Source of the DNA: Sterolibacteriaceae bacterium
GTDB taxonomy: Bacteria > Pseudomonadota > Gammaproteobacteria > Burkholderiales > Rhodocyclaceae
Assembly: GCA_043738385.1 (NCBI GenBank)
Contig: JAYUGL010000167.1
Span: 348-64,347, forward strand
DNA: 64,000 bases
Direction of reading: 5' to 3'
Notes under the pieces: generated by a model
What the model was told of the DNA's origin: nothing
What the model saw: the letters and a program-made list of their open reading frames with translations, nothing else
Databases searched by the model: none
Translations under genes and position numbers: made by a program
In this document: piece after piece, positions 43,523-64,000 of the stretch
Numbering within the stretch: position 1 is the stretch's first letter
Layout: the number at the start of each line of letters is the position of its first letter

Positions 43523-44566
43523 ATGATGCTGAAACGCGAGAAGTGCCCGTTTTTCCTTGTCTTTCTGCTACCGATGGTGGCGGCGTGCGGCGTGACTCCG
43601 CAAACAGCTGACAATCCCCGGATGACTTCTGCCTGTCAGGTCGAGCGGTCGGCCAGCCCAAGATCGGCGGCGCCGAGCAGCGGATTCTCGATGACCTTTG
43701 GCGGCTTGGGCGCGAGCGGCGGCGGTTCCCGTCCGCAGCGGGGTGAATGCGACGGCCCATGCCCCAGGGACAGCGCCGGTTCCCGCAGCAGCGTGGGAGC
43801 GGGCTTGTCCCTCAACCTCGGCGAACTGTTTCGGCACCTGTCCACACCCGAGTTACCAAACCGGTTGTTCGACGAAGGTCCCCGCTTCGAAGATGCCTTC
43901 AGCATGGCCTGCATCCCGGTACGCGGTTTTGTTCGCGGTGGTTGGCCCCTGGTCATCGATTATCAGGCGGAACCGGGGACCGTTGCTTCGGTGGAAATTC
44001 ACGTCGAAGGGCAGGATCCGGTGGTGTTGCCTTTGCCCAGCGGTAGTCAACGGAATGTACTCAAACTGAAGCTGCCCGAACGGCTGGGTGACAAGCTCAC
44101 CACGGCCTTGTTCCTGGTGCGCGGGGTCAAAGACCAGCCGGGTGCGCCGGTACTCGGCCGGGTTCAGGTGTTCGGGCTGGGCGCCGGACCGCGGGCCGTG
44201 GGCTCGGTCGCCATCGACCAGGTGGACTTCAAGCCGGGGGTAGTGCATCTCGGCAAGAAGGAGACCGCCCGCTTCAGCTTTTATTCCCGCTCCGACTTCA
44301 ATCGGGCCGTGGCCGAGATCATGCGGGTGGACAATCAAAACGGTGACCTTCAGGTACGCTTGGCCCGATCCATTCCATTGGAAGGCGGGGTGGCAGCCGG
44401 TACTTGGGTTGGCCGCCAGGAAGCGCGCCTCTGGGACGGTACCGACGCCAATCGGCAGGCTTCTCTGGGCCAGCACCTGATGCAGGTCCGGGCCTGGCTC
44501 GGCGCCCAGGAGGGTGGCGACTGGGTTGCGGCTTGGTCGGCCGGGTCGGTGGAGGTTGCGCGCTGA
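43523..44566 (+). CDS. Lipoprotein with C-terminal Ig-like (FlgD_ig-like) domain
   Basis: Signal peptide plus lipobox (LLPMVAAC). The C-terminal WDGTDANRQASLGQHLMQVRAW resembles FlgD-type Ig-like domains. The stop is 4 nt before the next ATG. Confidence 0.6.
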   Translation: MMLKREKCPFFLVFLLPMVAACGVTPQTADNPRMTSACQVERSASPRSAAPSSGFSMTFGGLGASGGGSRPQRGECDGPCPRDSAGSRSSVGAGLSLNLGELFRHLSTPELPNRLFDEGPRFEDAFSMACIPVRGFVRGGWPLVIDYQAEPGTVASVEIHVEGQDPVVLPLPSGSQRNVLKLKLPERLGDKLTTALFLVRGVKDQPGAPVLGRVQVFGLGAGPRAVGSVAIDQVDFKPGVVHLGKKETARFSFYSRSDFNRAVAEIMRVDNQNGDLQVRLARSIPLEGGVAAGTWVGRQEARLWDGTDANRQASLGQHLMQVRAWLGAQEGGDWVAAWSAGSVEVAR

Positions 44567-44570
44567 CGCG

Positions 44571-46118
44571 ATGTTTGCTTCGGTACTCCGCTACCGCTGG
44601 CTGCGCGCGCTGCGGGCCCGTTGGCCATGGGCCGTGGGCCTCTTGCTGGTCATCCTTTCTGGCCAGTTCGCGCTAACTTCGCCACGCAGTGGCGTAGATC
44701 TCGCCGCCATCGGCGTGCTAAAGCCGGTGCCAGGCCAAGCCATCGCCCTGCGCGGCTTGGCGACGGAAGGTAATATCCTCACCTATACGGCGGGCGCGGA
44801 AGGCGGCCTCGATCTCCGCTTCGAACGAGCCCGCTTGGCGCCGGAAACCCTGGCACTGCTCAGCCACCTTGGCATCGTCGCGCCAACCGGTGAGGCGCCC
44901 GTGAGTTGGATCACCCGTGCCGAGCCTGGGATCGGCAAGGAAACCAAGTCGCGTTTCGAGGTGACGGCAGCTGACCCCAACCGGCTTCCGGACATCTTCG
45001 TATTGCGCGTTCTCCCCGGCGCCACCCCGCGCCAGGCGCGCCTCGAAATGGTCTCCAGCGGTGCGCCGCTGGCGGTAATCCTGTCCTTGCCGTGGACCGG
45101 CGCGGACCATGCGCCCCGCAAGATCCTGCGGCTCGGCGCGACCGACCTGGTCCTCCCGGGAACCCTGCCGATCAAGCTGCTGGTGCCAGCCGATGCACGC
45201 TGGCGGGCGATCATCTCGCTGCCTGAGCAGCCCGTACCATCCGCCGCGCTAATCTTCGGGGCCTTCTCCGAACGAGATGGTGGCGGGCTGGCGGCAGCTG
45301 CGCTCGGCCTGGAGCCGGTGCCCGGAGCGTCAGCCTTCCTTGCCTGCGGTACCGCGGCGGGAAGTCTCTTGTGGCGTGCTGCCAGCCGATTGGCCGCTGG
45401 CGCCTGCCCGCCGACCGATCATGCCATCCAGGTACGTTCCCTGACCTTGCGTGCGGATGGTGCAGACTTGGTCGTTGGCGGCAACGCCTGGGTACTAAAG
45501 GATAGCCAGCCCCTTGGCGAGGACCTTCTCGTGCACCTGCGCCGGCAGCCTATATGGTGGGCTTTGCTTCTCCTGGCGGATGGACTGCTCCTCGCCTGGG
45601 CCCTGCTTGCCCTGCTGCCCGGGCCCCGCCGCATTGATCTGCGCGGTGTCTTCATCAGCTATCGGCGTGCCGATAGCGGGCCCCGTGTCGGGCGACTTTA
45701 CGACCAACTGGTGGCGAGACTGGGCGCCGAGAAGGTGTTCATTGATCTCGAGTCGATCCCCGCGGGGACCGACTTTAAGCACTTTATCGCTGACAGCCTG
45801 AGCAAGGTGGACGTGGTTCTGGCGGTGATTGGCCCGCATTGGCTCGACTTGAGGGATGGCAGCGGTCAGCGTCGGCTGGATGCGGAGAACGATCTGGTGC
45901 GCCGGGAGATAGCCGCCGCCCTCGCTGGCGGTCTTCGAGTGATCCCGGTGGTGGTGGGCGGCGGTTCGATGCCGACTGCGGGACAGTTGCCTGCCGACCT
46001 CGCCGCCCTGGCCGGCCGCAATGCCGCAGAGATCGGCGACCGCCAGTTTCTGCGCGACGCCGACGATCTGATTGATCAGATCGAATACGCCCCCCTGCGT
46101 TCCGGTTCAGCAAGTTGA
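44571..46118 (+). CDS. Membrane protein with extracytoplasmic domain, second TM and C-terminal TIR domain (TIR-B)
   Basis: ATG 44571. N-terminal anchor WPWAVGLLLVILSG, ~290-aa hydrophilic region, TM IWWALLLLADGLLLAWALLALL, then TIR (VFISYRRAD, GRLYDQL, DLVRREIAAAL, VIPVVV). Confidence 0.8.
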   Translation: MFASVLRYRWLRALRARWPWAVGLLLVILSGQFALTSPRSGVDLAAIGVLKPVPGQAIALRGLATEGNILTYTAGAEGGLDLRFERARLAPETLALLSHLGIVAPTGEAPVSWITRAEPGIGKETKSRFEVTAADPNRLPDIFVLRVLPGATPRQARLEMVSSGAPLAVILSLPWTGADHAPRKILRLGATDLVLPGTLPIKLLVPADARWRAIISLPEQPVPSAALIFGAFSERDGGGLAAAALGLEPVPGASAFLACGTAAGSLLWRAASRLAAGACPPTDHAIQVRSLTLRADGADLVVGGNAWVLKDSQPLGEDLLVHLRRQPIWWALLLLADGLLLAWALLALLPGPRRIDLRGVFISYRRADSGPRVGRLYDQLVARLGAEKVFIDLESIPAGTDFKHFIADSLSKVDVVLAVIGPHWLDLRDGSGQRRLDAENDLVRREIAAALAGGLRVIPVVVGGGSMPTAGQLPADLAALAGRNAAEIGDRQFLRDADDLIDQIEYAPLRSGSAS

Positions 46119-46248
46119 TTTGCGCGTGCGCCATAAAAAGTTTCACTGCGAGATGCAAATCGTTCCTGACGCTGCTGATGCATAGAGGATTTGTTGGGGC
46201 TTCACCTCCGCCAAGTTGCTCAAGTTGACGCACACAACGCATGCCATT

Positions 46249-46384: not shown

Positions 46385-47191
46385 CTACATGCACTTCGAT
46401 TGCCACTGCGAGCCGCCGGCAGGGCAATAGCCGGCGCAGGCTGCGGCTTCGTGATATCCGGAAGCGCATTGCGGATTCGGTTGGCTGACTCCCAGGGCCA
46501 CATATCCCCAGCAACCGCATGCCGACGTCGGCATGCCGCTGGCCAGCCCAACCTGTTGCGGCGGCAACTGCTGATTGGGTGGCGTGGACGATTGCTCAAT
46601 GAGGAGTCCGATTACGATCAGCCCGACGAAGATGCCGCCAATCCAGGCCAGCGTTTTCACCAGCTTTGACGATGGCGGAGTCGAGGGCGGCGACGGCACC
46701 CTATTGTCGCCCCCGGGGGTCGGGATGGGGCGCAACCCCAAGCTCTCCAGCGCCGCAGCCAGTTGCTGCACGTCGTAATCCCAGCGCTCGTCCGACAAAG
46801 TGAGCGCCTGACGCCGGGCCAGCGGCTTGAGGTCCTCGGGCAGGTCTGCGTCAACGGGTGACGCGGCGCCTTCCACCAGCACCGGAATCACCCGGATGCC
46901 GCGCTTGAGCGCGGCCGCGATTTCCAGCCGAATCCAGTCATTGGGGAGGTGCAGCCGACTCTGATCTCCGCTATCGCCGGCCCAGCGGCGGCCGATGACG
47001 GCCAGCATGACCGAGCACGACGAGAGCGCACCCTCGATGGCTTCGACGAAGTCAACACCGGGCTGGATGGTCTCGACGTCGCGGAATATCTGCGCCTTGC
47101 CGAAACGCCGCTCCAGGCTGTCGGCCAATCGCCCGGCAGCACTCTGGCTGTCCTGGCGCCGGTAGCTGATGAAAATGCCTGACGCTGCCAT
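46385..47191 (-). CDS. TIR domain, single TM, Cys-rich tail (TIR-C)
   Basis: IFISYRRQD, GRLADSL, DWIRLEIAAAL, VIPVLV. TM LAWIGGIFVGLIVIGLLI. The last ~44 aa contain 6 Cys. Confidence 0.8.
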   Translation of the reverse strand: MAASGIFISYRRQDSQSAAGRLADSLERRFGKAQIFRDVETIQPGVDFVEAIEGALSSCSVMLAVIGRRWAGDSGDQSRLHLPNDWIRLEIAAALKRGIRVIPVLVEGAASPVDADLPEDLKPLARRQALTLSDERWDYDVQQLAAALESLGLRPIPTPGGDNRVPSPPSTPPSSKLVKTLAWIGGIFVGLIVIGLLIEQSSTPPNQQLPPQQVGLASGMPTSACGCWGYVALGVSQPNPQCASGYHEAAACAGYCPAGGSQWQSKCM

Positions 47192-47347: not shown

Positions 47348-48517
47348 TCACACGAATCCGGCGAAATGGGCCGGCTGCACCTGCTTCGCGGCGGCTTGGC
47401 CGACCTTCTGGATCTCGGCTATGTATTGCACCGAATCCAGCATCTGGACGTGGTTCGGATCGACCTCCGCGAGACCCAAAGCGTCGAGGCCCGCGCGGCT
47501 CAGGTCCGCGTCATAACGCAGGTAGGTGAACAGCTTGGCGCCGGTCCAGTTGCTCTGGTCGCCGGGTTGTACCAAGAGGCCGCCGATCTCGCGATCAATC
47601 GGCCCGCCCGCGCGGCATGCGCCGAGCATCCGACACGCCGTGTCCCAGCCGGCAGCGGCGGCATTCATCAGCGCCGCCGGAATATTCTTGACGTGATCGA
47701 GCAGCCATAGATCATCGGCCTTCAGTTCCGGCCTGGCCATCGCCGCGCCGCCCGTGCCGACCGATACGATCAGCAGCTTGTCCGCGCCTGTGGGCCAATT
47801 CACCTTGTACGGCGCCGTAGTGGCCATCTGGAAGGCGAGAAAAGCTGGGTTGTTGTAGGTCGTCACACCGCCGTCTACAAATACGAACTGATACTCGTTT
47901 GGCGTACCTTCGGCGAAAGTCACCACTTCGGGCGGAAAGAACGTCGGTGCTGCCGTGCTGGCCCGCACCAGTTGCCATAGTGGCAGGTTGAGGTTGCAGT
48001 CTTTGCGATCAGCCTGGTTGTACTTGCCCAGCGGATTGTTGAACACCGGCCAGGGCGAATCAGTGGTGTGGTTGCGCAGCACCATCATCAGCAGGGTGCG
48101 CAGGTTCGCGTCGCCCAGCGTGGCGGGTGGCACGTTGTCAGCATGGCCAAGCGCGCGGTTGAGTTCAGTGCGCAGCTTTCCGGCCAACGGCTCATCGTTG
48201 TAGCTATAGCGCAGACGCTTGAAGAGGCTGGCCTTGTCGAACATCTGCTCGCCGCTACCAACGTAGAACGCGCGAATCCTGTCCATCGACATGCCGGCAG
48301 AGATGCAGGCGGCGATGATGGCGCCGGTGCTGGTGCCGCAAACGAAGTCGAAGTAATCGGCAAGCACCAGATCTGGCTTGCCGCACTGTTCGCGCAGTTG
48401 CGCTTCGATCCGCGCCAGGATTTCGACACTCATCAGGCCGCGGATGCCACCGCCATCGCAGGCGAGGATCTTCTTGGGGCCGGCGGACTGCATGCGCTTC
48501 AGGACCTGCTCGTTCAT
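47348..48517 (-). CDS. Patatin-like phospholipase
   Basis: DGGGIRG oxyanion loop, GTSTG nucleophile elbow and FVDGGV Asp motif. GGGAGA RBS. Confidence 0.9.
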   Translation of the reverse strand: MNEQVLKRMQSAGPKKILACDGGGIRGLMSVEILARIEAQLREQCGKPDLVLADYFDFVCGTSTGAIIAACISAGMSMDRIRAFYVGSGEQMFDKASLFKRLRYSYNDEPLAGKLRTELNRALGHADNVPPATLGDANLRTLLMMVLRNHTTDSPWPVFNNPLGKYNQADRKDCNLNLPLWQLVRASTAAPTFFPPEVVTFAEGTPNEYQFVFVDGGVTTYNNPAFLAFQMATTAPYKVNWPTGADKLLIVSVGTGGAAMARPELKADDLWLLDHVKNIPAALMNAAAAGWDTACRMLGACRAGGPIDREIGGLLVQPGDQSNWTGAKLFTYLRYDADLSRAGLDALGLAEVDPNHVQMLDSVQYIAEIQKVGQAAAKQVQPAHFAGFV

Positions 48518-48538
48518 GTCATTCTCCCAATACGTGTC

Positions 48539-50104
48539 TCAGGCGGACGGTCCGCCCGGCGCAACCGTGAACAACGCCTCGAACACTTCGCGTGCCTTGG
48601 CGGTATTCATGCGGCCAGCTTCCAGCCAAAGGAAACGTCCGCAGGGCGCGGCGCCAATATCGGCGGCGGCGGTCTGCCGGTCGGTTTTGTCATCGTAAAG
48701 CACAACGACACGACGCAGGTTCGCGACCTTGACCAAGACGCTCAGTTCGTAGCGGCAACCGTGGTTCTGCGATTGAAAGCCGCGCAGGTCCATGAGCACG
48801 ACGTCGCAGCGATTCACCAATGCGGTCAGCGCGGACTCCCAGGTCGTGTCGCGGCAGTAGCACTCGTTCACTCGATAGCGACCGTCCGGGTCGGGCTTGA
48901 GGTCGAAATTGGCCAGACGCTGCGGCACGTCGGGTTCGCTGTTGATGAAGCGTTTGCCCAGTTGCCCGTCGAGAAAAGTGAACAGGTCATCCGGATCGAG
49001 GGTACGGCTGACAAGGTCGGTGCCAGCGATCAGCATGGTGTTGCCGGTGAAGCGCCAGCGCTCGATCACCTGATCGAACAAGGCCTCCAGCTGCGCGTCA
49101 TGCTGAAAGACCCGCAGCACCAGCAAAGTGGCCGGGTTGTCTTCCCGCGGCCGCCAGATCGTCAGCACCCACCAGCCGACGGGGATCCAGAGCCACGGGA
49201 TCAACAAGCTCAGGCCGCTGGTGCCGACACCGGCAAATGCGGGAACGGCATTGCCCATGAGGATGACAAACCAATAGATGGCGAAGAGATAACCGAGATC
49301 GGAGAAACGCTTGTTGCGGTAAGCGCCGGCCATGCGACGACCTAGCGCGAACACCGGCCATGCAAGCAGCGCCCAGGGTGCCAGGGCGCAGAACAGCATC
49401 GTGCCCTTGACGCCGAAGACGTCGACCAATGGCGCCACAACCTGCCAGCTCGTGTTCACGTTGGTGCTGAGGGCCTGGAGCGCGAGGATCGAGGCACTGG
49501 AAAGAACCAGCGCCGGCGGCAACAGATAAGGCGCCACGGCCCGAATGCGACCACTGGCACTGATGATCAGTGTAATGATGAGTGGCACGCCCATCTCGGT
49601 GGACAACCAGCCGACGACCGCTAGCAGCGATTGCTGGGCATTGGAACGCAGCATCACGAGCACGATCATGATCACGAGATATATTGCGATGCCACCCAGC
49701 ACCCGGCCCCAGGGCCAGCGCAGGGTCAAGCCCCAGGCCAGCACCATCGGCCAGCCATAGACCGCGCCGAGCAGCAGTAGCCGATTGACCGAGAACGCCT
49801 TGACCTGAACGATCAAGGCAAACCACGCTTGCGTCAGCGCCACCAACACGCAAACCCCGGTCAGCGCCACCAGAAGGCGCATGGTCACGCGGCGATTTGC
49901 CGCGAGGTCCAACCGCGCTGGCATCCGCGGCGGCAAGGCCAACACCTCGGTAACGCCCGCACGCGCGACATCAGGCGCGGCCCCGCCACGCATCAGGATC
50001 ACCATGCGCCGTCGGTACAACCCGGCCACCACCCACGCAAGGCTGGCGGCGAGGAATACACCCAACATCAGGGCGACGAATAGGTGGCCGCTTTGAATTC
50101 CCAT
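48539..50104 (-). CDS. Multi-pass membrane protein with a C-terminal soluble alpha/beta domain of unknown function
   Basis: About 10 hydrophobic helices over the first ~320 aa, then a ~190-aa domain (LLVLRVFQHD...CDVVLMDLRGF...VVVLYDD) with alternating strand/helix character. No motif recognised. Confidence 0.6.
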   Translation of the reverse strand: MGIQSGHLFVALMLGVFLAASLAWVVAGLYRRRMVILMRGGAAPDVARAGVTEVLALPPRMPARLDLAANRRVTMRLLVALTGVCVLVALTQAWFALIVQVKAFSVNRLLLLGAVYGWPMVLAWGLTLRWPWGRVLGGIAIYLVIMIVLVMLRSNAQQSLLAVVGWLSTEMGVPLIITLIISASGRIRAVAPYLLPPALVLSSASILALQALSTNVNTSWQVVAPLVDVFGVKGTMLFCALAPWALLAWPVFALGRRMAGAYRNKRFSDLGYLFAIYWFVILMGNAVPAFAGVGTSGLSLLIPWLWIPVGWWVLTIWRPREDNPATLLVLRVFQHDAQLEALFDQVIERWRFTGNTMLIAGTDLVSRTLDPDDLFTFLDGQLGKRFINSEPDVPQRLANFDLKPDPDGRYRVNECYCRDTTWESALTALVNRCDVVLMDLRGFQSQNHGCRYELSVLVKVANLRRVVVLYDDKTDRQTAAADIGAAPCGRFLWLEAGRMNTAKAREVFEALFTVAPGGPSA

Positions 50105-50146: not shown

Positions 50147-51088
50147 TCACGACGAACCGCCATCTCGCTTGGCGACGAACTCCACCGGCGTATGCACCGA
50201 ATACCCGCCGCTGATTTCCAGTGTGAAACGTATGCTTTCGGGCGTTACCTGACCGATGTAGTGATGCGTCACCTCCTTCGGTTCCCCGCCGCTGCTGATC
50301 GACTCCAGGCTGCGTGTCACGAAGCTCAGCCACTCGCCCTCCAGCTTTGCCTGTTCTATCGTCAGACGGCCCCCTTCGAATGAGGCCGTGCCGTGCAGCG
50401 CATTGGCCAGGTATTTGAACTCGAACACTTCGTCATACTGGTCGCCCCAGTCGTACTTCACCCGCGCGCTCCAGCGCCCGCTGAGATCCACTGCGGCTTG
50501 GTGCGCCACCGGGGTGCTTGTCGATGTTGCTGGAACAAAGCGCAATGCCGCAAACACACCGACCACGACAATCGCAACGGCCGCGACAATCAGGCGCGCT
50601 CGGCCGAAGCCAGGCTTTGCGTCGTGGGCTTCCGGCGACAACTCCCTCAATCTCGCCACCAGCCGCTCGACATCCGTCCGCCAGTCGGCATCGGACAACA
50701 CCATGGCCTGGTGGCGCGCCAGGCTGGCGATGGCATCGGGCAGATCCTCGCCAGCCGGCATTGCCGCGCCGCCCAACAGCAAGGGGATGACCGGCTTGCC
50801 GGACGCGAGCCCGGCAGCCACCTCGCGGCGAACAAAATCGTCCGGCGCATCGAGTCGTCGCCCGCCGTCGGCGCCGGCCTCCAGCCAGTGGGGTCCGATC
50901 ATCACCAGCATCGCGTGGGCGGACTGCAATTGTCTGTTGATGGCCTCGACGAAGTCCTCGCCGGGCTGAATGTCGTCCACATCGCGGAACACGCTGCCGA
51001 CCCCGAAGGCCGTCTCAAGCGCATCCGCCAGGCGGCCGGCGAAACCGGCGTTGTCGTCGCGACGATAGGAAAGAAAGAATCTGGGCAT
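50147..51088 (-). CDS. TIR domain, single TM, ~120-aa extracytoplasmic beta-rich domain (TIR-D)
   Basis: Internal ATG 51088 (MPRFFLSYRRDD). GRLADAL, DFVRREVAAGL, VIPLLL. TM LIVAAVAIVVVGVFAALRFV. The upstream part of the listed ORF overlaps the previous gene. Confidence 0.8.
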   Translation of the reverse strand: MPRFFLSYRRDDNAGFAGRLADALETAFGVGSVFRDVDDIQPGEDFVEAINRQLQSAHAMLVMIGPHWLEAGADGGRRLDAPDDFVRREVAAGLASGKPVIPLLLGGAAMPAGEDLPDAIASLARHQAMVLSDADWRTDVERLVARLRELSPEAHDAKPGFGRARLIVAAVAIVVVGVFAALRFVPATSTSTPVAHQAAVDLSGRWSARVKYDWGDQYDEVFEFKYLANALHGTASFEGGRLTIEQAKLEGEWLSFVTRSLESISSGGEPKEVTHHYIGQVTPESIRFTLEISGGYSVHTPVEFVAKRDGGSS

Positions 51089-51102
51089 GGAGAGAAACAG
51101 CG

Positions 51103-52464: not shown

Positions 52465-52490
52465 CAACGGTCCTCCAAATTCGACAACAC

Positions 52491-53060
52491 TCAGGCAACT
52501 GCCTGCTTCAGGCCGGTCTCGTAGATCCACTGCCCGCTGCGCGGATCGCGGATGTAGCTCAACTGCTGGCGCCGGTTGGCGCCCTGTCCGGGCGCTTTCA
52601 CCGAGATATGCACCCATCCCGAGTTGGGCCCCTGACGCGGATCGAAGCATTCACAGATGATCTGATCATAGTCGGCAAGGTTGTCGCGCGCCCACTTGGC
52701 CAGTTCCAGTGTGCTCTTGCCGGGGATCTCGACGTCGCAGGCGCAGCCCCGCGTGTGCTGGCTGGTGCTGATCCAGCCAGCCGGCTTTTGTTTCAACGCG
52801 CGCTCGGTCGCCTGGCTGCGGAAAACGCTGTTGGGCGCAAAACTGCCGAACTTGTCGCGCAACACCTGCAAAACATTTCGCGCCAGATACACCGCCGCTT
52901 GCAGTTCGGCGTCGCCGGGAAATCCATTGTCAATACCGAGCCGACTGGCGACTTCGGACTTGGTGAGTTCAAAGACGTGAAAATTCGGCGCGACGAGGTC
53001 TTGCAGGTCCAGCGCCCGGAGCGTGATCTTGTCGAGCGGCGTGGTGGATCGGTCGGTCAT
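52491..53060 (-). CDS. Peptidase M15 (D-Ala-D-Ala carboxypeptidase/endolysin-like) zinc hydrolase
   Basis: Internal ATG 53060 (MTDRSTTPL). Hx6D (HTRGCACD) and distal WVHISV His motifs of the M15 family. The listed ORF's Arg-rich N-terminal extension overlaps the upstream giant gene. Confidence 0.7.
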   Translation of the reverse strand: MTDRSTTPLDKITLRALDLQDLVAPNFHVFELTKSEVASRLGIDNGFPGDAELQAAVYLARNVLQVLRDKFGSFAPNSVFRSQATERALKQKPAGWISTSQHTRGCACDVEIPGKSTLELAKWARDNLADYDQIICECFDPRQGPNSGWVHISVKAPGQGANRRQQLSYIRDPRSGQWIYETGLKQAVA

Positions 53061-53085
53061 GACGGTCTCCCTGGGTCTGTCCGGA

Positions 53086-56000: not shown

Positions 56001-58590
56001 CGCCACCGGGCGGCGTGGCGGGCAGCAGCGATGTCTTGCCGGTCATCAGCAAATCAAGGTAGCCCGGCAGGACGCGCTTCTGGGTGCACAAGGCGTCGTG
56101 CGCGGTATCCTCCGCATACCAGACCGGCACGTCGGGCAGAAAGCCCGATTTCCAGCTCACCGTGCCATCGCCGCATGGGGTGGCGAGAAACTCCAGGCGC
56201 TTGCGTCCCGCCAGCAGTGGATCCTCGTAGTCGGCTACCTGGTAGTCGATCACGGTCGCATCCTGGCAGCCGGCGACGTAGATCATGAACTTGGGGTCGG
56301 CGGGTGCCGCTTTGAGCAGCGCCCAGGTATCGCGCGCCTGTTGCAGCACCGCCTCGTCCGTCACCGGCCAACGGGCACTCAATGCCTTCCTGAGATCCTG
56401 CCACAGCGCGCGCTGCGCGAAATCCCGACTGTCGTCATCGAAGGGCAGAAGTTCCACCAGCCCGGGAAACGCGCGTACCAGATCGATGATTTCATCGGTG
56501 TCGTGCGTCATGTCGAGCAGGCTGAGGTTCGCCTCGGTCGCGTTGTAACCTGTCAGCCAGCGCACCGCTTCGTAGGAGCCGCGGTTGGGTGTACCGAGCA
56601 TCAGGAAGCGGCTGTTCGGCAGCGCCTGGATGCGCCGCCACAGCGCCGCGCCGCGGCTGCCGTCGACGATCATGGCACGCGTCACCAGGCCGCCCATCGA
56701 GTGAGCGACGATGTGTACCGGCTGCTGAGTGCGCTCGATCTCCGGCAACCAGGTCTCCAATTTGTCGGCGAGTTTCGCCGCCGCATCGCGCACCGACAGC
56801 CGCCAGTCATAGGGGAATATCTCGACGCGATGGCTGCGCGCGAGGAATTCCAGTAGCGGGCCGTAGAAATCGTCGAGCAGATCGACCGGCTCGACGCCGG
56901 CTACGTCCATATGAATCTTCGCCAGCCCGCCCCGCAACAAGCTCCAGTAGTTCAACCAGACACCCTCGCCCTGAACGTTCAGAGCACTACCCATGGTCCC
57001 TGGCAGCACTACCGCCAGCGGCCGTGGTTCGGCGGCGGTGCGACTGCGACGCACGGCAGCGCGCCAGCGCGGCTCTGCCTGCGGCGCTTCCTGAATCGGC
57101 TGGAAACCGCCGTCGTCATCGTCGGCCCGGGTGAGGCCCGCCACCAGCCAGCGCACGCTCTTGTCGTTGGCGAAATAGCTGAAGTGACTAACGTTGGCGC
57201 CCTTGTCTAACTGGAAGCGCGCACCCTTCTCCGGACGACGCAAGCCACCGGCCATGGAGCCGGTGTTCACCACCAGGTCGTGATCGGCGCCATAGAACCA
57301 GTCGGTGGCCAGCAGCTTGACCTGGCTCCACAAGCCCTCGCCCTCGATGTCGCCGGCGATGACGCTCAAGTCGGCGCTTGTCACCAGCGCCGGATGCAGC
57401 AGCAGGCGCGTCAACGCGGAACCCGGCATCATGGCTTCAAGCCCTGGCAGCGTGCGCGGATCGGTGCGTTCCTTTACCACCGCCAGCATGAAGTCGGCAA
57501 CATCGCCGACGAGACCGTCGCCACTCAGGAAATTCAGCACCGACAGCCAACGGTCGAGCCGCCCAGAAGCCAGCGTGGTGCCGCGCGCCGGACAGGCCAC
57601 GCGTACGAAACGACCAACCTTCAACTGGCGGTCGTCAAGTTCGTTCAATAGTTGTTGCAGGTTCTTGCGGTCGGCTTGGTAGCCCAAATCGCGCGCCTTG
57701 GCATCATTCGCCGCCAGCGGTCCGAGGTCCAGTTGCCGGGCGATGGTCCGGTCGGCGGCGAAGAGCGTCTGTAGCAGTTCCGGACGTAGCAGGTCGTTCG
57801 CGCGATCGCGCTGGCCGAGGCAAAGCAGCTCGCCGACCAGGCCGCCGCGCGAATGACTGACGAGATGAATCTCGGCGCCCTTCGGCAGCCGCTGCACCAG
57901 ATCCAGCGCGTTGCGGATCGGGCTTTCCGTCATGCTGCGATGCTCCCACGCAAAGACCCGATCGCCATATTTCTCGGCCAGCGTGCGGCGTGCGGCAGCG
58001 CCGACGGCACCGTTCCACAGCTTGCCGAAGCTGCCCTCGCAACTCGACGCGGTGCCATGCAGGAAGACCAGGACCGGCTTGTCCGTGGCGATGCGCGCGT
58101 TTTTTTCGGTCGGCGAAAGCGCAAAAGTATCGCCGAGTGCGCAACGGTAGAGTCCCGGTGCCCTGCCTTTGAGCATTTTTTCTTCAAACGCCCGGCCGAT
58201 GGCGCCGGCCGCCTTTTCTTTCAGATCCACGCCGAAGAACTCGAGCGCCTTGATGCCCAATCCCATCCACCCGCGCTGGCCGCGGGCGCCTGCCCGGGCG
58301 CCGCGCGCCGACGGCTGGAGCTCGATTTCCCAGGCATCGCCGCCATCGCGGCGCACCTCCTTGCGGCCGCTTTCGCGGATCAGATCGTCGGCACGCGTCC
58401 ACAGCACGAAGCCGTTGTCGAGCTCGACCTTCACCACCTCGTCGCTGTGCGCCTCGATCTCCTCGGCGGTCGCGCCCCGCGCAGCGCCAGGCACCACGCG
58501 GCGGTGGCTGGTGATGACGACCGCCTTGCTGGTGGCCGGCGCGGTAGCCGATGACTGTTGGGTGCCACGGATGCGATAGCTGATGGTCAT
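53086..58590 (-). CDS. 1,834-aa multidomain protein: two lipase-type alpha/beta hydrolases + central alpha/beta insert + CHAT (caspase-like) protease + C-terminal helical repeats
   Basis: ATG with AGGAG RBS. SHSRG (Ser247) with DHDLVV/SHF. AHSMGG (Ser631) with GDGTV and AHD (LCAT/PGAP1-like). CHAT dyad HLAGHG (His1335) and FINCCHLG (Cys1400/1401). Residues ~1510-1834 are helical. Confidence 0.85.
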   Translation of the reverse strand: MTISYRIRGTQQSSATAPATSKAVVITSHRRVVPGAARGATAEEIEAHSDEVVKVELDNGFVLWTRADDLIRESGRKEVRRDGGDAWEIELQPSARGARAGARGQRGWMGLGIKALEFFGVDLKEKAAGAIGRAFEEKMLKGRAPGLYRCALGDTFALSPTEKNARIATDKPVLVFLHGTASSCEGSFGKLWNGAVGAAARRTLAEKYGDRVFAWEHRSMTESPIRNALDLVQRLPKGAEIHLVSHSRGGLVGELLCLGQRDRANDLLRPELLQTLFAADRTIARQLDLGPLAANDAKARDLGYQADRKNLQQLLNELDDRQLKVGRFVRVACPARGTTLASGRLDRWLSVLNFLSGDGLVGDVADFMLAVVKERTDPRTLPGLEAMMPGSALTRLLLHPALVTSADLSVIAGDIEGEGLWSQVKLLATDWFYGADHDLVVNTGSMAGGLRRPEKGARFQLDKGANVSHFSYFANDKSVRWLVAGLTRADDDDGGFQPIQEAPQAEPRWRAAVRRSRTAAEPRPLAVVLPGTMGSALNVQGEGVWLNYWSLLRGGLAKIHMDVAGVEPVDLLDDFYGPLLEFLARSHRVEIFPYDWRLSVRDAAAKLADKLETWLPEIERTQQPVHIVAHSMGGLVTRAMIVDGSRGAALWRRIQALPNSRFLMLGTPNRGSYEAVRWLTGYNATEANLSLLDMTHDTDEIIDLVRAFPGLVELLPFDDDSRDFAQRALWQDLRKALSARWPVTDEAVLQQARDTWALLKAAPADPKFMIYVAGCQDATVIDYQVADYEDPLLAGRKRLEFLATPCGDGTVSWKSGFLPDVPVWYAEDTAHDALCTQKRVLPGYLDLLMTGKTSLLPATPPGGARAATTGAEKFVMPTLPPTDSIPDQRDMRSMGFGPGAPVEDAADQMTTPRIQVSVVHGDLSYARYPVLVGHYLGDVIVNAEAALDGRLGRVLTKSLGLGLYPGQPGTHAVFFNEQPSGKPGGAIVIGLGQVGSLSTTVLQTTVCAALLDYALQVARWPDARFGPSGGVRSAAVSCLLVGSGPGGTSVRDCVEVILRGAVLANERLEKAELADKVLVDRIEFVDVFEDAALAAAKALKALLADGQLATAVNWSAGVVEEGQGCRRRLRYDDAPGWWGRLEIIEEKGDGGLRFISATDRARAEITHATGQLRFAEDFIRQASRSPASNSEVAKTLFEMLLPNQLKELAPQQTDMVLLVDEVSARYPWELIEDRWSQSGRPPAVSAGLIRQLKTPQFRLNPHHATEATAFVVGNPDLGGWREFPELPGARDEAQKVSALLSRRGFRVRDCIDENAEDLMDGLHKDAWRILHLAGHGEHEFVLNDDTGAAHDDGAQSVQDITASSKPERRVSGMVIGKNTFLTPGDIEQMRWVPELVFINCCHLGKTQAEGHGEYSALAANLGVQFINMGVKAVVAAGWAVDDGAAGAFAESFYRHMLDPDCPMTFGEAVKAARAAVWASFPEVNTWGAYQCYGDHGYRLRGEGSARPSQPSFLAPAELVAELDNHRESIRMQMKEKGEDVEAVARMRATIDALLAGAPEAQRGEWAARADVAAAAGFAWGETGEYAKGVEWLNKALHADLGDCPLRAVEQCANFQVRLCGQRWQALRASKRGKAADRRGLVADIEHAVRELDVICQRAPTVERLNLLGGACKRLAWVCDDATPRFEALVNMASYYHQAFKRGNNENPYPFSNWAIATVFVAVLDRTRSDHWRSIVDDQCQRMIAIATARKEANPNFWDAVGEADCELARLLLQTGNAATQSVGRIVARYRAAAQRGASPREYASVLEHLDFVAELAGIASLPAAEAIKSVRAAL

Positions 58591-58637: not shown

Positions 58638-59429
58638 TCAGGTGAACACGTCGAATCGGCGGGCGGCCGCGCTGCCGAATATCTGCGGGTGCTGCGGCAG
58701 TTTGCTGGAAGGCAGGTAGGCACTGATCAGTTTGAACCAGTCGTCATAATTGGACGGCGCGTCCTCGCGCAGCGTCTTCAGCGCGTAGTAGGTGAAGGCG
58801 CCGTTAGGCCGGCCATGGAAGCGCGTATCCCAGCTGTATTCGGAATCCTCGGCGCCAGCCAAAAGCAGATCGCCGCCGCTGCGCTTGAATCCGTGCACCA
58901 GGGTCTTTGGCCGCTTCGCGGTTGCAGGCAGCTTGCCCGCCGGCATCCAGTCCTGCAAGGGCATGTAGCGGGCGCGCGGCATGCCGGGGGCGGGGTCGGT
59001 TGCATCGCCGCGGGTTACCGAACCGGAGTGGCAGCTGTCGGAGAGCAGCAGGACGCGCACGCCATTCGCGCGCCGGTCGAAAAGTTGATGGATCTCGTCA
59101 TCGAGCAGTGGCCCCGCGCTGCTGATATCCCAGGGGCAGAGACCCTCATCACGGCCATCGGGCTCATCGCCGGAACTGTCCGGCACCCAGGTGCCATGCC
59201 CGGAGTAGGTGATGACCACGGTATCGCCTGACGACACGCCGGAGATCGCCGCGCCGATTAACGCCGCCATGTTAGCCTTGGTGGCCTGGCCGTCGAGCAA
59301 CTTGGTAATGGTGAAGCCGCGCTTGGCGAGTTCCGTCGCCCAGTCATTGGCATCGTTGACGCAGCCGGACAAATCGTTCTGGGTGCCGGGATAGTCGTTG
59401 ATGCCTATGCAAAGTGCCTTCTTCGCCAT
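58638..59429 (-). CDS. Caspase-like peptidase (C14 family, metacaspase/orthocaspase type)
   Basis: ALCIGINDY, His motif YSGHG (His78, nt 59196-59198) and Cys motif LSDSCHSG (Cys133, nt 59031-59033). AAGGAGGA RBS. Confidence 0.9.
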   Translation of the reverse strand: MAKKALCIGINDYPGTQNDLSGCVNDANDWATELAKRGFTITKLLDGQATKANMAALIGAAISGVSSGDTVVITYSGHGTWVPDSSGDEPDGRDEGLCPWDISSAGPLLDDEIHQLFDRRANGVRVLLLSDSCHSGSVTRGDATDPAPGMPRARYMPLQDWMPAGKLPATAKRPKTLVHGFKRSGGDLLLAGAEDSEYSWDTRFHGRPNGAFTYYALKTLREDAPSNYDDWFKLISAYLPSSKLPQHPQIFGSAAARRFDVFT

Positions 59430-59567: not shown

Positions 59568-60389
59568 TCAGAGGCTTCTGGTGTCGATCCAGCAGACCCG
59601 GCCGCTGCGGCGTTTGACTTCTTCGACCATATGGCCGGTGCCACCGGCGCCCTCGGTACCCGCGCCGTTCCAAAGGCAGACGAGACTTACCTTGTCCGGG
59701 CCGCAGACGAGGGCGGTATAGAGCAGCCAGAGATTGCAACGCTCGTAGGGGTAGTCCTCGCTGCTGCCGCGCGGCGGCTGGCCCAGCACCTCCGGTGCGG
59801 CGCGCGGGGGTGCCGCCAGCGCGGCTCTCGACGCCAGGTAACGGCGGTGCCAATCTTCGCCGCAGCCAACCACGGAGGCCGCGATGAACTCCGGTTCGGC
59901 AAAGGGTTGCAGCCAGAACACCTTCACGCCACGTTGCCGACAGGCTTCGGTGAACAGCAGGTCGCCGCCGCATGCGCCCTGCGTCAGCGCGAGATCTTGC
60001 GACCCGGCAGCGAGCCGTTCGAGCGCTTCGGCAATTCTTTGCGCCGCCTGCGCTACCTTGTTGGCGGGAAAACGTGGCGTCGGCCGATCGGGGGCATCGA
60101 TCATATGGCCACTGAACACGAAGACCTGCCTGGGCTGCCAGGTTTCTGCGGCGCGATTCGGAACAGCGGTCCCTTGCCGGCACAGGGCCTGCTCGCTCAG
60201 GCCCTTCGCATTGCCAGCGTTGATAACCAAGGCACGTTCGAGCAGTTCGAGCGCGAACGCGTAGTGCCCCGCCGCACGTAACGCCGCGGCCGCCTCGATC
60301 CAAGTATCGGCGCGAAGCTCCGCTGCCGGCGCCTCGTCGGCGAGCAGCAGCAGATCACCGATGCGGTTCGCCGAGCGGGCGAGACCCAC
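59568..60389 (-). CDS. Hypothetical protein with SLOG/LOG-like Rossmannoid domain (tentative) and short N-terminal helical region
   Basis: This frame is the only protein-like one of three overlapping ORFs. VFVFSGHMID strand, TQGACGGDLLFTEA and GAGGTGHMVEE resemble the GGxxG / GGxGTxxE loops of LOG/DprA/SLOG folds. GTG start. Confidence 0.5.
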   Translation of the reverse strand: MGLARSANRIGDLLLLADEAPAAELRADTWIEAAAALRAAGHYAFALELLERALVINAGNAKGLSEQALCRQGTAVPNRAAETWQPRQVFVFSGHMIDAPDRPTPRFPANKVAQAAQRIAEALERLAAGSQDLALTQGACGGDLLFTEACRQRGVKVFWLQPFAEPEFIAASVVGCGEDWHRRYLASRAALAAPPRAAPEVLGQPPRGSSEDYPYERCNLWLLYTALVCGPDKVSLVCLWNGAGTEGAGGTGHMVEEVKRRSGRVCWIDTRSL

Positions 60390-60437: not shown

Positions 60438-61832
60438 TCAACTCCAGGCGCGATTGCCAAGCCCGGCGACGTAGTCGTTGATGAACTTCGCCCAGGCGTT
60501 CTTCTTCGCGAAGTCGAGCGTGCGGTAGAGGCCGCAGACCTTCTTCTTCGGGAAGTAGATCGAGGCGCCGTGCGAATGCGCCATCTTCGCGCCTTTCCAG
60601 CCCGATCGCAGGATCATCTGCGCCGCCGCCGCCTTCACCGCCGCACAGGCGGCCGAAACATCGGCAACGGTGACGAGCTTGGCCAGGCCGTCGCAAAGGT
60701 CAACCAGGTCGACGTAATCGTCGTAGGGTGACGAGTACTCCTGCACCCCGCCGCGTACCGACTGGAGCGCGGTGAAGACCTTCGCGTCGGTCATCGCCTT
60801 GCTGAGCGCGGCGCCGAGGCTATTCACGCCGGCGGCAACGGCATCGATCTTGGCAAGATCCGTGGCGGCGAAGGTGACGCCGGAATTAGCGCCATAAGAC
60901 GCGATGTACTGGGTAACGGCGAGCTTCGAAAGTTCGGCCGGAGACATGGCCGGATTCTTGGCCAGCGCGGTCAGGATGCGGTCGTAAGGCCAGCCTTCGT
61001 TTGGCTCTTCTTCCTGCGAACCCACGGTGTAGGCAGCGACGCCCTTAACCTGGTAGCCGACTTCGAGCATGCTCATCAGGCAGGCGTCGAAACCGAGGAT
61101 GTCGATCTTGCGGCCGAGCAGTTTCTTGATGTCGAGCATGACGCGCTTCATCTCGATGTTGTCGATGTAGTCCTGCGCCTGATCGTCGAAGGCGATGGCG
61201 CGCGACTGCGCCATTTTCTGAACCGTGGTCCGGAACAGCGCGCGACCGCCGCGTCGAATCGCCGCCCGTGCCTGCGCCAGAGGAACCGCGGCCGTCTTCT
61301 TGCGCCCGGCGCCCGCGCGCGCCGACACGCCGCCCTTGGCATCGAGCGTGTAGCCCTTGCGGATCACCGGCGGCGCGTTGCCACCGAAATAGTCGCCGCC
61401 GGCGGCATAAAGGTTCGAATCGTCCCAACCGGCGCCGTGGTTCCAGAGTACCGCCAGGTAATGCTGCGCCGGGTAGGTCTTGATGCCCCAGGTCAGAAAG
61501 TCCTTCAGGACCTTGGGGTCGCCCGTATTCGTCTCGCCCAGATCACCGACGACGTCGGCCGCGACCGGGGTACCCTTGCGCAGCAGATAGCGTTTCGTGG
61601 TTTCCTTGCTGCCCGCCCGATCAAACTGGGCAACGACGTTGATCGAGGCGCTGGAGCCGACCTTCTTCATCTCCAGCAGATCGGTCACTCCGGCGCCGTC
61701 GAGATTGTTGTCGCCGGCCAGATAGACCATGAGGGTCCAGCTGGCATTCGCTTTGGCTTTGGCCGGAGCCGCTTTTTTCGTCGTCGCTCTTCCTGCCGGC
61801 GTCTTTGTTGTCGTTGCGCGTGCCATAGTCAT
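60438..61832 (-). CDS. Clostripain-like cysteine peptidase (C11 family)
   Basis: WTLMVYLAGDNNL, His motif LWNHGAGW, Cys motif GFDACLMSMLE. N-terminal Lys/Ala/Thr-rich low-complexity segment. Confidence 0.85.
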   Translation of the reverse strand: MTMARATTTKTPAGRATTKKAAPAKAKANASWTLMVYLAGDNNLDGAGVTDLLEMKKVGSSASINVVAQFDRAGSKETTKRYLLRKGTPVAADVVGDLGETNTGDPKVLKDFLTWGIKTYPAQHYLAVLWNHGAGWDDSNLYAAGGDYFGGNAPPVIRKGYTLDAKGGVSARAGAGRKKTAAVPLAQARAAIRRGGRALFRTTVQKMAQSRAIAFDDQAQDYIDNIEMKRVMLDIKKLLGRKIDILGFDACLMSMLEVGYQVKGVAAYTVGSQEEEPNEGWPYDRILTALAKNPAMSPAELSKLAVTQYIASYGANSGVTFAATDLAKIDAVAAGVNSLGAALSKAMTDAKVFTALQSVRGGVQEYSSPYDDYVDLVDLCDGLAKLVTVADVSAACAAVKAAAAQMILRSGWKGAKMAHSHGASIYFPKKKVCGLYRTLDFAKKNAWAKFINDYVAGLGNRAWS

Positions 61833-61946
61833 TCTCCCTTACGGTTGGATGTGTGGATCATGCGTACTGCCGCCGGTTGACAATACTCTCACAACATATC
61901 GGCTTCAATGGATGATCGATGCCGACAATCGGTCGCCGGCACGTAA

Positions 61947-62326: not shown

Positions 62327-62445
62327 AACCCGCGTCTTCATCGCAATGCCCTTCGGCCCCAAGAAGGACGCCAACGGCCGACGATAACTTCAACCGCATC
62401 CAAGACGAGCGGCTCAAGGAGCGCTTGGTCGCCATCTGCGCGTAA
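62323..62445 (+). pseudogene. Decayed N-terminal fragment of a TIR-like/NDT-like gene (paralog of 51103..52464)
   Basis: RVFIAMPFGPKKDANG (frame 0) and DDNFNRIQDERLKERLVAI (frame 1) together mimic CFVVQGFGKKTDFTDG...LDLDASYAIIKEAV. Two frame changes are needed, and the reading frame stops after ~40 codons. Confidence 0.45.
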
Positions 62446-62511: not shown

Positions 62512-62538
62512 CGTAAAATCTTTCGCTATCCCGAAAGA
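62512..62538 (-). terminator. Weak terminator candidate downstream of the C1/hydrolase gene
   Basis: 7-bp stem TCTTTCG/CGAAAGA (62519-25 / 62532-38) followed on the minus strand by TTTTA. About 95 nt after the stop at 62634. Confidence 0.3.
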
Positions 62539-62633
62539 GGATCAGGTTCGAGGCGCAATACCGATGAGGTGGCTAATGTGAGCCTTCTATATGAGCGCGG
62601 TTAGCAGCAAAAATTACAACGCGTTGCGATGAA

Positions 62634-64000
62634 TCAGTAGCCAAGGTCATCGATTGGCACAGTCAGGGTGGCGCCCGGCGCATTGCCGAGAATCCGGTTA
62701 ATCGTGCGTTCGATGACCTCCTTGTTGTTGTCAAACGAGCCATGCGATGCGGGGATGGATTTTTTGCCGGTCGAGACCTGGTCACTGGTGACGACTTCGC
62801 ACGCAGGTCGCCCGTCGGCCTGCGCCGGCAGACCACTCACCCAGTTGCGCCAATCGCTCACCTGCGGCCAGTAGCTCTGCTGCCAGAGGTCGTCATCGGG
62901 ATGGGTGGCGTTGATCTCGACGCAATGCTGCAGGCCGGCAATCGGCGTCTTGCGTGCATCTTCGAAACCGCGACACACCAGGTAGAGCAGCGATTTGCCA
63001 TACGGCCCGGCGCTATCTTCTTTTTCGCGTTGGTCGGAGAGCACGTGCAGCCAGGTTTTACTGGCGGGCACTGACTTGGGTGTCACAAAGTGAAGGTTTG
63101 CGAAAGCGAGCGAGCAAGCGGGCGCAAACAAGGTGAGCGAGGCAGGTTTGATTTTTGCCTTCGCCATCATGTCGAGCAAATAACCATGGACAAACGAACC
63201 CGCCGAGTGGCCGACCAAATGAAATTCGGTGTCAGGATACTTCGCCTGCAACCACGCCATGTTTGCGACCATGAGATCCAGCGCGCAACCCTGGGCCTGC
63301 GCCCCTGCCGCGTTGTCTTTCATTTCATTCCAGATCCACCGGGCCGCGTGCGCGCTCGCTTCCAGCAGGTAGTCTTTCGCGTCGCCGAAGAATCCGGTGG
63401 CAATTTTTTCCGCCGGTGCTATGCCAAGTACATCCTGTAGTTTGGAAATGATGGTTTCCCAAGCGCCGGTGCGCCAGGTATAGAAAAGCGGGTAGACGCC
63501 GTTGGCAAGAAAATAGGGGGCCATCACCCGGATACGATTGATGGAGGATTCTTCGTCGTTAAGTCCACCGTGCGCATAGATCACGACCTTGCGCGCAGGT
63601 TTGGCGACCCCCTTGAGCCACTGGCCGATATTCTCTTTCATGATCAACTCAACCAGTCCTTCAGCGGTGCCAATATTGGGCATGCTCATGCGCACGAGTC
63701 CATTATTGCCGGCGACCAAAGTATGCTGGTACGCACGCTGTGTGGGCCACGGCGGTACACCAGCGGTACTCCCTTTGTCGCCGGCCTTGCTGTCACCGGA
63801 CAACAAGGAGGTACTGAGTTGCCGCGCCGGTGCGCTGGTGATGACCGCGGCGCCGGTAGGCTGGGTCGCCTGTGGTACGCCGAGCGAACACACCCAGGCA
63901 TCGGCGCCATTCACTGCCCAATCGGCGTAGGTCATGATCGCGAATCCGCTTGCACCCCATCCCTTGCCCCACGAGTTCTGCACCACGAAGCCGATTTCGT
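62634..64000 (-). CDS. Papain-like (C1) peptidase C-terminal end fused to an alpha/beta hydrolase (lipase/esterase-like); 5' end outside window
   Basis: The frame is open to base 64000 (..GFVVQNSWGKGWGASGF, the NSW catalytic-Asn region of C1 peptidases). Downstream: VVIYAHGGLND and nucleophile elbow VGHSAGSF. Confidence 0.75.
   Translation of the reverse strand, partial: EIGFVVQNSWGKGWGASGFAIMTYADWAVNGADAWVCSLGVPQATQPTGAAVITSAPARQLSTSLLSGDSKAGDKGSTAGVPPWPTQRAYQHTLVAGNNGLVRMSMPNIGTAEGLVELIMKENIGQWLKGVAKPARKVVIYAHGGLNDEESSINRIRVMAPYFLANGVYPLFYTWRTGAWETIISKLQDVLGIAPAEKIATGFFGDAKDYLLEASAHAARWIWNEMKDNAAGAQAQGCALDLMVANMAWLQAKYPDTEFHLVGHSAGSFVHGYLLDMMAKAKIKPASLTLFAPACSLAFANLHFVTPKSVPASKTWLHVLSDQREKEDSAGPYGKSLLYLVCRGFEDARKTPIAGLQHCVEINATHPDDDLWQQSYWPQVSDWRNWVSGLPAQADGRPACEVVTSDQVSTGKKSIPASHGSFDNNKEVIERTINRILGNAPGATLTVPIDDLGY

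Follow-up and report, generated by a model that had tools for sequence, protein, structure and literature searches.

The 64,000-nucleotide (nt) window described here, by which we mean the whole stretch of contig JAYUGL010000167.1 of a Sterolibacteriaceae bacterium that was analysed, carries on its minus strand the gene for a protein of 1,834 amino acids (aa), which we call BIG (53086..58590). Ten minus-strand genes, from a C11 peptidase gene (61,832) through a TIR gene at 46,385, follow one another with gaps of 5 to ~160 nt, and BIG lies among them. Nearly all real genes past 43.5 kb carry a conflict-type domain. A sequence-only reading made beforehand had proposed a multi-gene conflict or cell-death cluster, and this has held up, in that the same gene families recur together in other genomes. 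What lies here is a real modular system, with BIG as its hub, a core of metacaspase-like peptidase, BIG, and peptidoglycan peptidase (C14–BIG–M15), and TIR proteins as an optional partner.

BIG is cytoplasmic, and a hydropathy scan found no transmembrane (TM) segment and no signal peptide in it. Pfam assigns it four domains, namely DUF7379 (E-value 3.5e-32), LCAT (5.4e-9), CHAT (4.8e-24), and TPR-S (1.4e-11). From the N-terminus, the order is a region of no assigned fold, the DUF7379 alpha/beta-hydrolase (Ser246), an LCAT-like lipase (Ser630), a middle region, CHAT (His1334/Cys1399), and the C-terminal TPR-S; separate Pfam searches with the N-terminal and middle sub-regions gave no matches. 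The catalytic residues of both hydrolases and of CHAT are invariant across 13 homologs. Full-length homologs number more than 100 and share 54-95% identity with it; they come from Rhodocyclales, Burkholderiales, Chromatiales, Azotobacter, and others, and a collection holding one genome per species contains at least 585 matching stretches. Several hundred species or more carry the family, and many of these are metagenome-assembled genomes (MAGs) annotated to wastewater- or sediment-associated taxa. Its annotation so far is “CHAT domain-containing protein” only. Neither PADLOC nor NCBIfam has a model for BIG, nor for the SLOG, C11, and M15 proteins discussed below; comparison of BIG with PDB chains by sequence gave no match, and literature searches found no publication on DUF7379, on the BIG architecture, or on TIR–PASTA proteins. 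Azotobacter chroococcum (L004; GCA_042682585.1) encodes tandem BIG paralogs of 1,830 and 1,874 aa; a C14 gene precedes the pair, a TIR gene separates its members, and genes for a group II intron reverse transcriptase, trypsin-like proteases, and an S8 protease lie nearby.

The two core partners flank BIG closely. The C14 metacaspase-like peptidase gene (58638..59429, minus strand; 263 aa) ends 47 nt before BIG and matches Pfam Peptidase_C14 at 7.1e-24. Its nearest solved structure is GSU0716 (3bij), followed by metacaspases, and His78/Cys133 are invariant in 27 sequences. On the other side, the M15 peptidoglycan peptidase gene (52491..53060, minus strand; 189 aa; Peptidase_M15_3, 1.3e-6) starts 25 nt after BIG. 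The protein resembles the endolysins of Caulobacter and Stenotrophomonas phages (34-41% identity across ~86-90% of its length), and its H102/D109/H151 are invariant in 22 sequences; the hydropathy scan found neither a signal peptide nor a TM segment in it. Please note that the raw open reading frame (ORF) of this gene (52491-53363) starts too far upstream, as do those of the TPR-S protein (453 aa) and of the TIR protein at 50147 (316 aa). All three starts were corrected from homologs and from L001, a contig ~98% identical to the window over the aligned stretch, in which the BIG homolog is 95% identical. The TIR, CHAT, caspase, C11, patatin, and M15 assignments of the sequence-only reading are all borne out by Pfam profile matches, and every catalytic motif that it quoted is present in the sequence.

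It is the neighbourhoods of BIG in other genomes that identify it as the hub. We assembled 85 BIG loci, 80 of them fetched with 10-kb flanks and five by exact look-up, and searched them by tblastn with every island protein; many of these contigs end early, and the counts that follow are lower bounds. An M15 gene lies directly 3′ of BIG at 42 of the 85 loci, and a C14 gene directly 5′ at 36. A SLOG domain is encoded at 27, either 5′ of C14/BIG or sometimes after M15, and a homolog of the membrane protein TM521 at 17, after M15. Patatin genes occur at seven, six of which also have a TM521 homolog, and C11 genes at six, including Geobacter and Methylomirabilis MAGs, beside BIG or SLOG. TIR genes are found within 10 kb at 11 loci only, five of them in the slot directly 5′ of BIG. 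The island had been called TIR-centred, a description that must be replaced, as the constant element of the 85 loci is BIG.

Around BIG, these families turn up again in Beta- and Gammaproteobacteria, in Desulfobacterota, and in Methylomirabilis, with varying gene order. Three Azonexaceae/Ferribacterium loci (L037, L040, and L067) read ThsI-like/TPR-S/SLOG–C14–BIG–M15–TM521–patatin–ThsI-like; a Geobacter MAG (L070), whose BIG is 43% identical, reads SLOG–patatin–TM521–TIR–C11–TIR–BIG; and a Methylomirabilis locus (L079) reads C11–BIG–ThsI-like … SLOG. Reverse look-ups from one TM521 and one SLOG homolog both reached further BIG clusters, and one from a Nitrospira SLOG homolog reached none. These partner families are so rare (452 and 894 matches among 5.8 billion proteins) that their adjacency to BIG is not due to chance.

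Two further genes of the block connect it to Thoeris. The first (51103..52464, minus strand; 453 aa, counted from Met63 of the raw ORF 51103-52650) encodes a ThsI-like protein, with a CMP-hydrolase-like N-domain (“AFELG”) and a TPR-S/MAP3K_TRAF_bd part (Pfam 1.7e-24). The ELG motif is one that we take to mark the deoxyribosyltransferase/DNPH1 fold. Over 400 aa and across both domains, the protein shares 37% identity (E 5e-83) with a ThsI-type protein encoded on the E. coli plasmid NZ_CP147111.1 (L086:3013-4221). The second, a TIR gene at 50147-51097, starts 5 nt past the stop codon of the first, and the order is the same on the plasmid. Relatives of the ThsI-like protein are found on plasmids of Enterobacteria, Acinetobacter, Pseudomonas, and Vibrio, with TIR genes beside each. 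The TIR of NZ_CP147111.1 in turn shares 56% identity (2e-57) with the type VIII ThsB TIR from Yersinia, which has been validated experimentally and for which we used the sequence in Table S1 of the type VIII study (Yirmiya et al., bioRxiv 10.64898/2025.12.03.692087). With such a homolog and a TIR gene 5 nt away, the statement that the locus does not fit Thoeris had to be abandoned. Likewise, of what had been described as a TIR-like/TPR protein the TPR-S part stands, whereas the N-domain is of ThsI type (annotated as a CMP hydrolase) and not a TIR proper.

The E. coli IncP plasmid (L086; NZ_CP147111.1, 260-7351) carries the operon ThsI-type–TIR–TIR–DUF4231, which is similar to the uncommon combined type VII/VIII Thoeris loci that Yirmiya et al. 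mention and lies beside tellurite-type resistance genes and a recombinase.

The TPR-S domain (PF20308) is shared, according to Pfam, by BIG (1.4e-11), the ThsI-like protein (1.7e-24), and the plasmid type VIII-type ThsI (1.5e-17). Burroughs and Aravind are said to have predicted in 2020 that TPR-S recognises signals derived from nicotinamide adenine dinucleotide (NAD). A second candidate for signal handling is the SLOG protein (59568..60389, minus strand; 273 aa), which consists of a short TPR and a YpsA-like SLOG domain. It has no Pfam family match; nevertheless, the earlier SLOG/LOG-like assignment is confirmed by its AlphaFold model (28 homologs, pLDDT 91.5), for which the best Foldseek match is YpsA (2nx2, E 5.8e-5, prob 1.0). 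The next matches, to DprA, ShosA, Moco carrier protein (MCP), and TRPM3, are all SLOG-superfamily folds. Between phyla the SLOG domain keeps 60-70% identity, with GACGGD and GGT.HM..E as conserved motifs, and fusions to TPR-S are frequent. Near BIG it is often the C-terminus of a ~700-aa protein with a ThsI-like N-domain, TPR-S, and SLOG.

Four TIR proteins are encoded in the window, and a TM scan places all of them in the membrane. The one at 46385..47191 (minus strand; TIR_2, 1.9e-16) has a TM segment (aa 180-198) and a Cys-rich extracytoplasmic tail. The one next to the ThsI-like gene (50147..51097, minus strand; raw ORF 50147-51238; TIR_2, 1.2e-14) has a single TM segment (aa 217-235 of the ORF) and an extracytoplasmic tail of ~125 aa. 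A third, on the plus strand (44571..46118; raw ORF 44514-46118), is arranged as a TM segment, a ~290-aa periplasmic domain, a second TM segment (aa 350-368), and the TIR (TIR_2 at aa 379-494, 2.7e-13). The fourth is an outlying paralog 9 kb from the island (32996..34174, minus strand; TIR_2, 3.1e-11), with an N-terminal TIR and five TM helices, and shares 45-46% identity with the TIR domains encoded in the L001 island, itself 95% identical to that of the window. Among solved structures, the human SARM1 TIR (3e-7) comes closest to the window TIRs. The catalytic Glu of SARM1, presumably E642, aligns with the Glu of “WIRLEIAAAL” in them. Directly upstream of the TM-TIR gene, so close that the maximal ORFs overlap, lies a gene for a predicted lipoprotein (43523..44566, plus strand) with a signal peptide, a hydrophobic N-terminus in the scan, and the lipobox VAAC, for which Pfam gives no family match. 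In the L001 ortholog of the TIR gene at 46,385-47,191 (L001:20,579-21,374) tblastn gives two overlapping pieces and the called protein has 163 aa, probably through a frameshift in that relative.

Since all four TIRs are membrane proteins, the suggestion of membrane sensing is a reasonable one. The ectodomains of the window TIRs have no Pfam match and are not PASTA. Five other loci, from five other genera, likewise have a gene of the TIR–TM–ectodomain plan directly 5′ of BIG. Among the BIG clusters, the one in L090 has a TIR protein with five extracytoplasmic PASTA repeats (L090:9557-11638; 3.8e-63), and the one in L070 has a TIR protein with a TM segment at aa 215-233 and two PASTA repeats (L070:3902-5647; 8.4e-26). 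These TIR–PASTA proteins have the layout of a receptor that would sense peptidoglycan and respond through its TIR, and hint at sensing of the cell envelope.

The other genes of the island mostly encode degradative enzymes. The C11 clostripain-like peptidase (60438..61832, minus strand; Peptidase_C11, 1e-54) has no signal peptide, and the CapV-like patatin phospholipase (47348..48517, minus strand; Pfam 2.8e-23) matches the PADLOC model for the CBASS phospholipase effector at 2.3e-44; against the NCBIfam model CBASS_lipase it reaches 115 bits, where the cut-off is 200 bits. At the window edge lies the 3′ part of a gene for a papain-like C1 peptidase fused to a GHSAG alpha/beta-hydrolase (62634..64000, minus strand), with no stop before the edge. 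Its ortholog in L001 (L001:2139-4238) is 699 aa long and has the papain Gln/Cys/His/Asn motifs and the C-terminal GHSAG hydrolase; the proposed fusion is therefore upheld at the level of motifs, although the Pfam C1 match to this ortholog (E 0.0038) falls below the cut-off. Among the 85 loci, this fusion, the lipoprotein, and the periplasmic part of the TM-TIR protein were found only in L001, and so may be recent additions. The hydropathy scan found no TM segment or signal peptide in the C14, C11, C1/hydrolase, patatin, SLOG, and TPR-S proteins, which places the degradative enzymes in the cytoplasm. TM521 (48539..50104, minus strand; 521 aa) differs from these in having ~8 TM helices, followed by a cytoplasmic Rossmann-like C-domain with an invariant Glu452 (AlphaFold pLDDT 76). 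The only holin match in NCBIfam was insignificant (E 0.0045), and no gasdermin family was matched in Pfam, no fold-based gasdermin search having been made.

The absence of a nucleoside triphosphatase (NTPase), to which the sequence-only reading had drawn attention, is confirmed at three levels: there is no Walker A motif in the real genes of 43.3-64 kb, no NTPase Pfam match in the window island or in the full L001 island, and no recurrent NTPase neighbour across the 84 related BIG loci. Several named systems were considered and rejected. Avs/STAND, vWA-MoxR, and Lamassu were discarded because no STAND, AAA+/MoxR, SMC, or GTPase core is present; CBASS because Pfam and PADLOC scans of the island proteins gave no CD-NTase and the patatin stays below the NCBIfam cut-off; and Craspase because Pfam finds no cas domains among the island proteins.

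The closest known relative is type VIII Thoeris, which pairs the ThsB TIR with ThsI, described as “CMP hydrolase and TPR”; its signal is canonical cyclic ADP-ribose (cADPR), and the TPR is the proposed sensor (Yirmiya et al., bioRxiv 10.64898/2025.12.03.692087). The window shares with it the ThsI homolog followed at 5 nt by a TIR gene, and the TPR-S family. It differs in its TIR, a SARM1-like TIR_2 with a TM segment and an ectodomain where ThsB is a short cytoplasmic ThsB_TIR, and in that the pair sits in a ten-gene block with BIG, the endolysin, C14, C11, patatin, and SLOG. Assemblies centred on Tpr proteins are also known from computational catalogues, which list TIR, YpsA-like SLOG, patatin, caspase, and TM proteins as partners; going by the summaries, the TPR scaffold and all of the listed partners are present in the window. 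As summarised, those assemblies centre on a ~400-aa glycosidase-TPR protein, whereas the hub here is a lipase-lipase-CHAT-TPR-S protein with an endolysin. The summaries of these assemblies and of the BcTir/Tpr system (Liu et al., bioRxiv 10.1101/2023.05.26.542521) make no mention of a BIG-type hub; a preprint reports that BcTpr makes an NAD-derived nucleotide.

Other systems resemble the island in single features. Type IV Thoeris, with a TIR, a caspase-like ThsE, and N7-cADPR (Rousset et al., bioRxiv 10.1101/2024.10.24.620036), likewise joins TIR signalling to caspase-family proteolysis; going by its description, it differs from the window, where C14 is a metacaspase-like domain of 263 aa with nothing attached, which goes together with BIG and mostly without a TIR. 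In the NTPase-based vWA-MoxR (VMAP) and GAP1 systems, described from bacteria of social or multicellular habit, every caspase-superfamily protease has an alpha/beta-hydrolase as its companion (Kaur et al., eLife 2020, PMC7159879). BIG has this pairing within one polypeptide, but no MoxR, vWA, GTPase, or STAND protein was seen in the island or the related loci. Like the endolysin of a phage holin–endolysin cassette, the window M15 is a signal-less endolysin homolog that would need a membrane lesion to reach the wall; here lipases or a regulated membrane protein, and not a holin, would make that lesion. The patatin recalls CapV of CBASS. Finally, BIG joins a CHAT protease to a TPR sensor as does Csx29, the TPR-CHAT protein of type III-E CRISPR, but its TPR-S is C-terminal to CHAT, it has no sequence match in the PDB, and there are no cas genes.

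Given the ThsI homolog beside a TIR gene and the catalogued TPR-S assemblies, this is a kind of system that is already known (Thoeris/TPR-S). What sets it apart is the BIG hub, the endolysin partner, and the membrane SARM1-like TIR_2 partners. The claim that the combination is undescribed can accordingly be kept for BIG and its endolysin, and not for the kind of system. A word of caution for those annotating such loci is that several “novel” TIR islands now lie within the enlarged Thoeris classification.

The reading that we prefer, with a confidence that stops somewhat short of even, is that ~46.4-61.8 kb forms one operon-like conflict or programmed-lysis system with BIG as its hub. In the order of events that we infer, the trigger would be envelope disturbance or infection, sensed by the membrane SARM1-like TIRs, in which the ThsI-type glycosidase domain may join. 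NAD+ would then be converted into a signal derived from ADP-ribose, with canonical cADPR as a candidate, either by the membrane TIRs or, in TIR-less loci, by the ThsI-type domain. The putative receptors of this signal are the TPR-S domains of the ThsI-like protein and BIG, and the SLOG protein may bind or trim it and so set a threshold. CHAT and C14 (plus C11) would be activated as a result, while the BIG lipases and patatin would attack the inner membrane, to which TM521 may add a lesion. The cytoplasmic M15 endolysin could then reach the peptidoglycan and lyse the cell, as abortive infection or altruistic death.

If this model is true, Thoeris-like signalling gains a cascade of proteases and lipases with endolysin lysis at its end. 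Extracytoplasmic sensing would be tied to bacterial TIR signalling through partners of the TIR–TM–ectodomain type, TIR–PASTA among them, which bears on the origins of SARM1- and TLR-type signalling. A broader proposition, which we put forward tentatively and consider doubtful, is that BIG represents a new and widespread class of single-polypeptide executioner, with two lipases, CHAT, and an NAD-signal-sensing TPR-S, which has captured a phage endolysin, is fed by TIR–TM–ectodomain receptors (with PASTA as the ligand domain in some lineages), and has no NTPase switch. On that proposition there would be a link in the style of Toll-like receptors from envelope or peptidoglycan sensing through TIR signalling to regulated bacterial death.

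A number of results weigh against the one-system reading. Most BIG loci lack a TIR within 10 kb, so a TIR signal cannot be obligatory unless its generator lies elsewhere or is the ThsI-type domain, and some loci, that of Niveibacterium (L003) among them, have only BIG and M15, amid housekeeping genes. The TPR-S of BIG and that of the ThsI-like protein show no similarity by BLASTP (E 0.6) and reach 1.6% probability in a thin profile-profile test (hhalign), so that the link between the two sensors comes from Pfam only. By BLASTP, the window TIR at 50147 compares with the Yersinia ThsB TIR at E 0.85 and belongs to a different clade. For whole TM521, Foldseek gave no significant match (those of best probability being PpnN and RCL), and when its C-domain was compared locally by hhalign with profiles of SLOG, TIR, and ThsI-N, the probability never exceeded 10.7%. 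A weak Pfam match of TM521 to Nuc_deoxyrib_tr (E 0.05), the RCL/PpnN match, and the invariant Glu weakly suggest that the C-domain may be deoxyribosyltransferase-like, which is only a lead.

The loci with few partners could also be explained by a defence island in which independent small systems sit side by side and share no signal. The candidates would be the ThsI-like and TIR pair, C14-BIG-M15, TM521-patatin, TIRs acting as lone NADases, and lone C11 and C1/hydrolase toxins. BIG and M15 alone in L003 fit such a reading, as do C14 and BIG alone in L005 and L011-L013 and TIR and BIG alone in L062 and L076; ThsI-type and TIR pairs work alone on plasmids; and in G+C content the island exceeds its flanks, with an integrase-core (rve) fragment at its far edge in L001. 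We nonetheless find it unlikely. The rare families re-associate in varied orders in different phyla, the ThsI-type domain, TPR-S, and SLOG are fused in one protein beside BIG at many loci, and the genes are tightly packed in one direction; chance co-location would not normally keep the partner set at 43% identity.

It is equally improbable, in our view, that the system serves a purpose other than immunity, namely socially regulated autolysis or death under envelope stress, with TIR receptors that sense wall damage or muropeptides. Cells of floc or aggregate formers might in this way release matrix and extracellular DNA, or damaged cells be removed, with no phage involved. The PASTA repeats on the TIR partners in L090 and L070 favour this explanation, which also draws on the TIR-TM-ectodomain proteins directly 5′ of BIG at the five other loci and on the many BIG loci amid housekeeping genes. 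The hosts belong largely to genera that form flocs or aggregates, among them Accumulibacter, Competibacter, Thauera, Dechloromonas, and Lamprocystis. However, the nearest characterised relatives (ThsI, the CapV-like patatin, and ThsB-type logic) are all anti-phage, phage entry and lysis perturb the wall too, which makes PASTA sensing compatible with immunity, and the ectodomains of the window TIRs are not of the PASTA type. A third explanation, that these are secreted or delivered toxins against competing bacteria or a host, is very unlikely: lipases, papain-like proteases, and M15 are generally known as common interbacterial toxin domains, but the enzymes have no signal peptide or TM segment that would see to their secretion, no secretion-system, Rhs/PAAR, or immunity-like genes were seen in the window or the 84 loci, and TPR-S and SLOG as intracellular sensor domains speak against delivery.

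Returning to the window, G+C content is ~59% up to ~44 kb and 62-66% across 44-62 kb, and the step at 43,300-44,000 marks the near edge of the island. The genes upstream of it are metabolic: metH, an MMPL transporter, an acyl-CoA-ligase type enzyme, DUF1302, a GMC oxidoreductase, and an 853-aa cytochrome-c protein. The far edge is visible only in L001, where the island stops ~2 kb past the window edge at the rve fragment (L001:1,623-2,090), beside a CCP_MauG gene. The G+C step and the rve fragment are consistent with horizontal acquisition of the island. The window C11 protein has no exact-sequence record, and the wider context was reached through the 95%-identical BIG homolog. Promoter and terminator scans of 44-64 kb gave counts no higher than shuffled controls and so carry no information on the limits of the operon.

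Those who work from ORF lists should remember that long antisense ORFs are typical of high-GC DNA. Four such ORFs on the plus strand (47,303-47,710, 48,068-49,345, 53,023-55,044, and 55,612-56,856) lie within real genes and are artefacts. The first of them seems conserved in other loci because it overlies the patatin gene, and the apparent conservation of 53,023-55,044 likewise arises because it overlies a real gene.

At ~61,890-62,380 the window lacks ~0.96 kb that is present in its relative (L001:4,656-5,650), and a 161-aa window ORF crosses the deletion junction. The extra DNA of L001 encodes a 220-aa protein with weak matches to DUF4062 and nucleoside deoxyribosyltransferase and a PADLOC match to PDC-S60 (3.6e-9). 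Between the outlying TIR-5TM gene and the GMC oxidoreductase (34,322-38,369, minus strand) there are three ORFs of 413, 504, and 432 aa, with no significant Pfam family, weak DyP-peroxidase matches in the 504-aa ORF only, and no co-occurrence with BIG elsewhere. The 853-aa protein with a cytochrome-c motif (40,735-43,296) flanks the island both in the window and in L001, and a 28%-identical relative flanks the Azotobacter BIG cluster (L004:23,803-25,482), which may be coincidence or a loose association.

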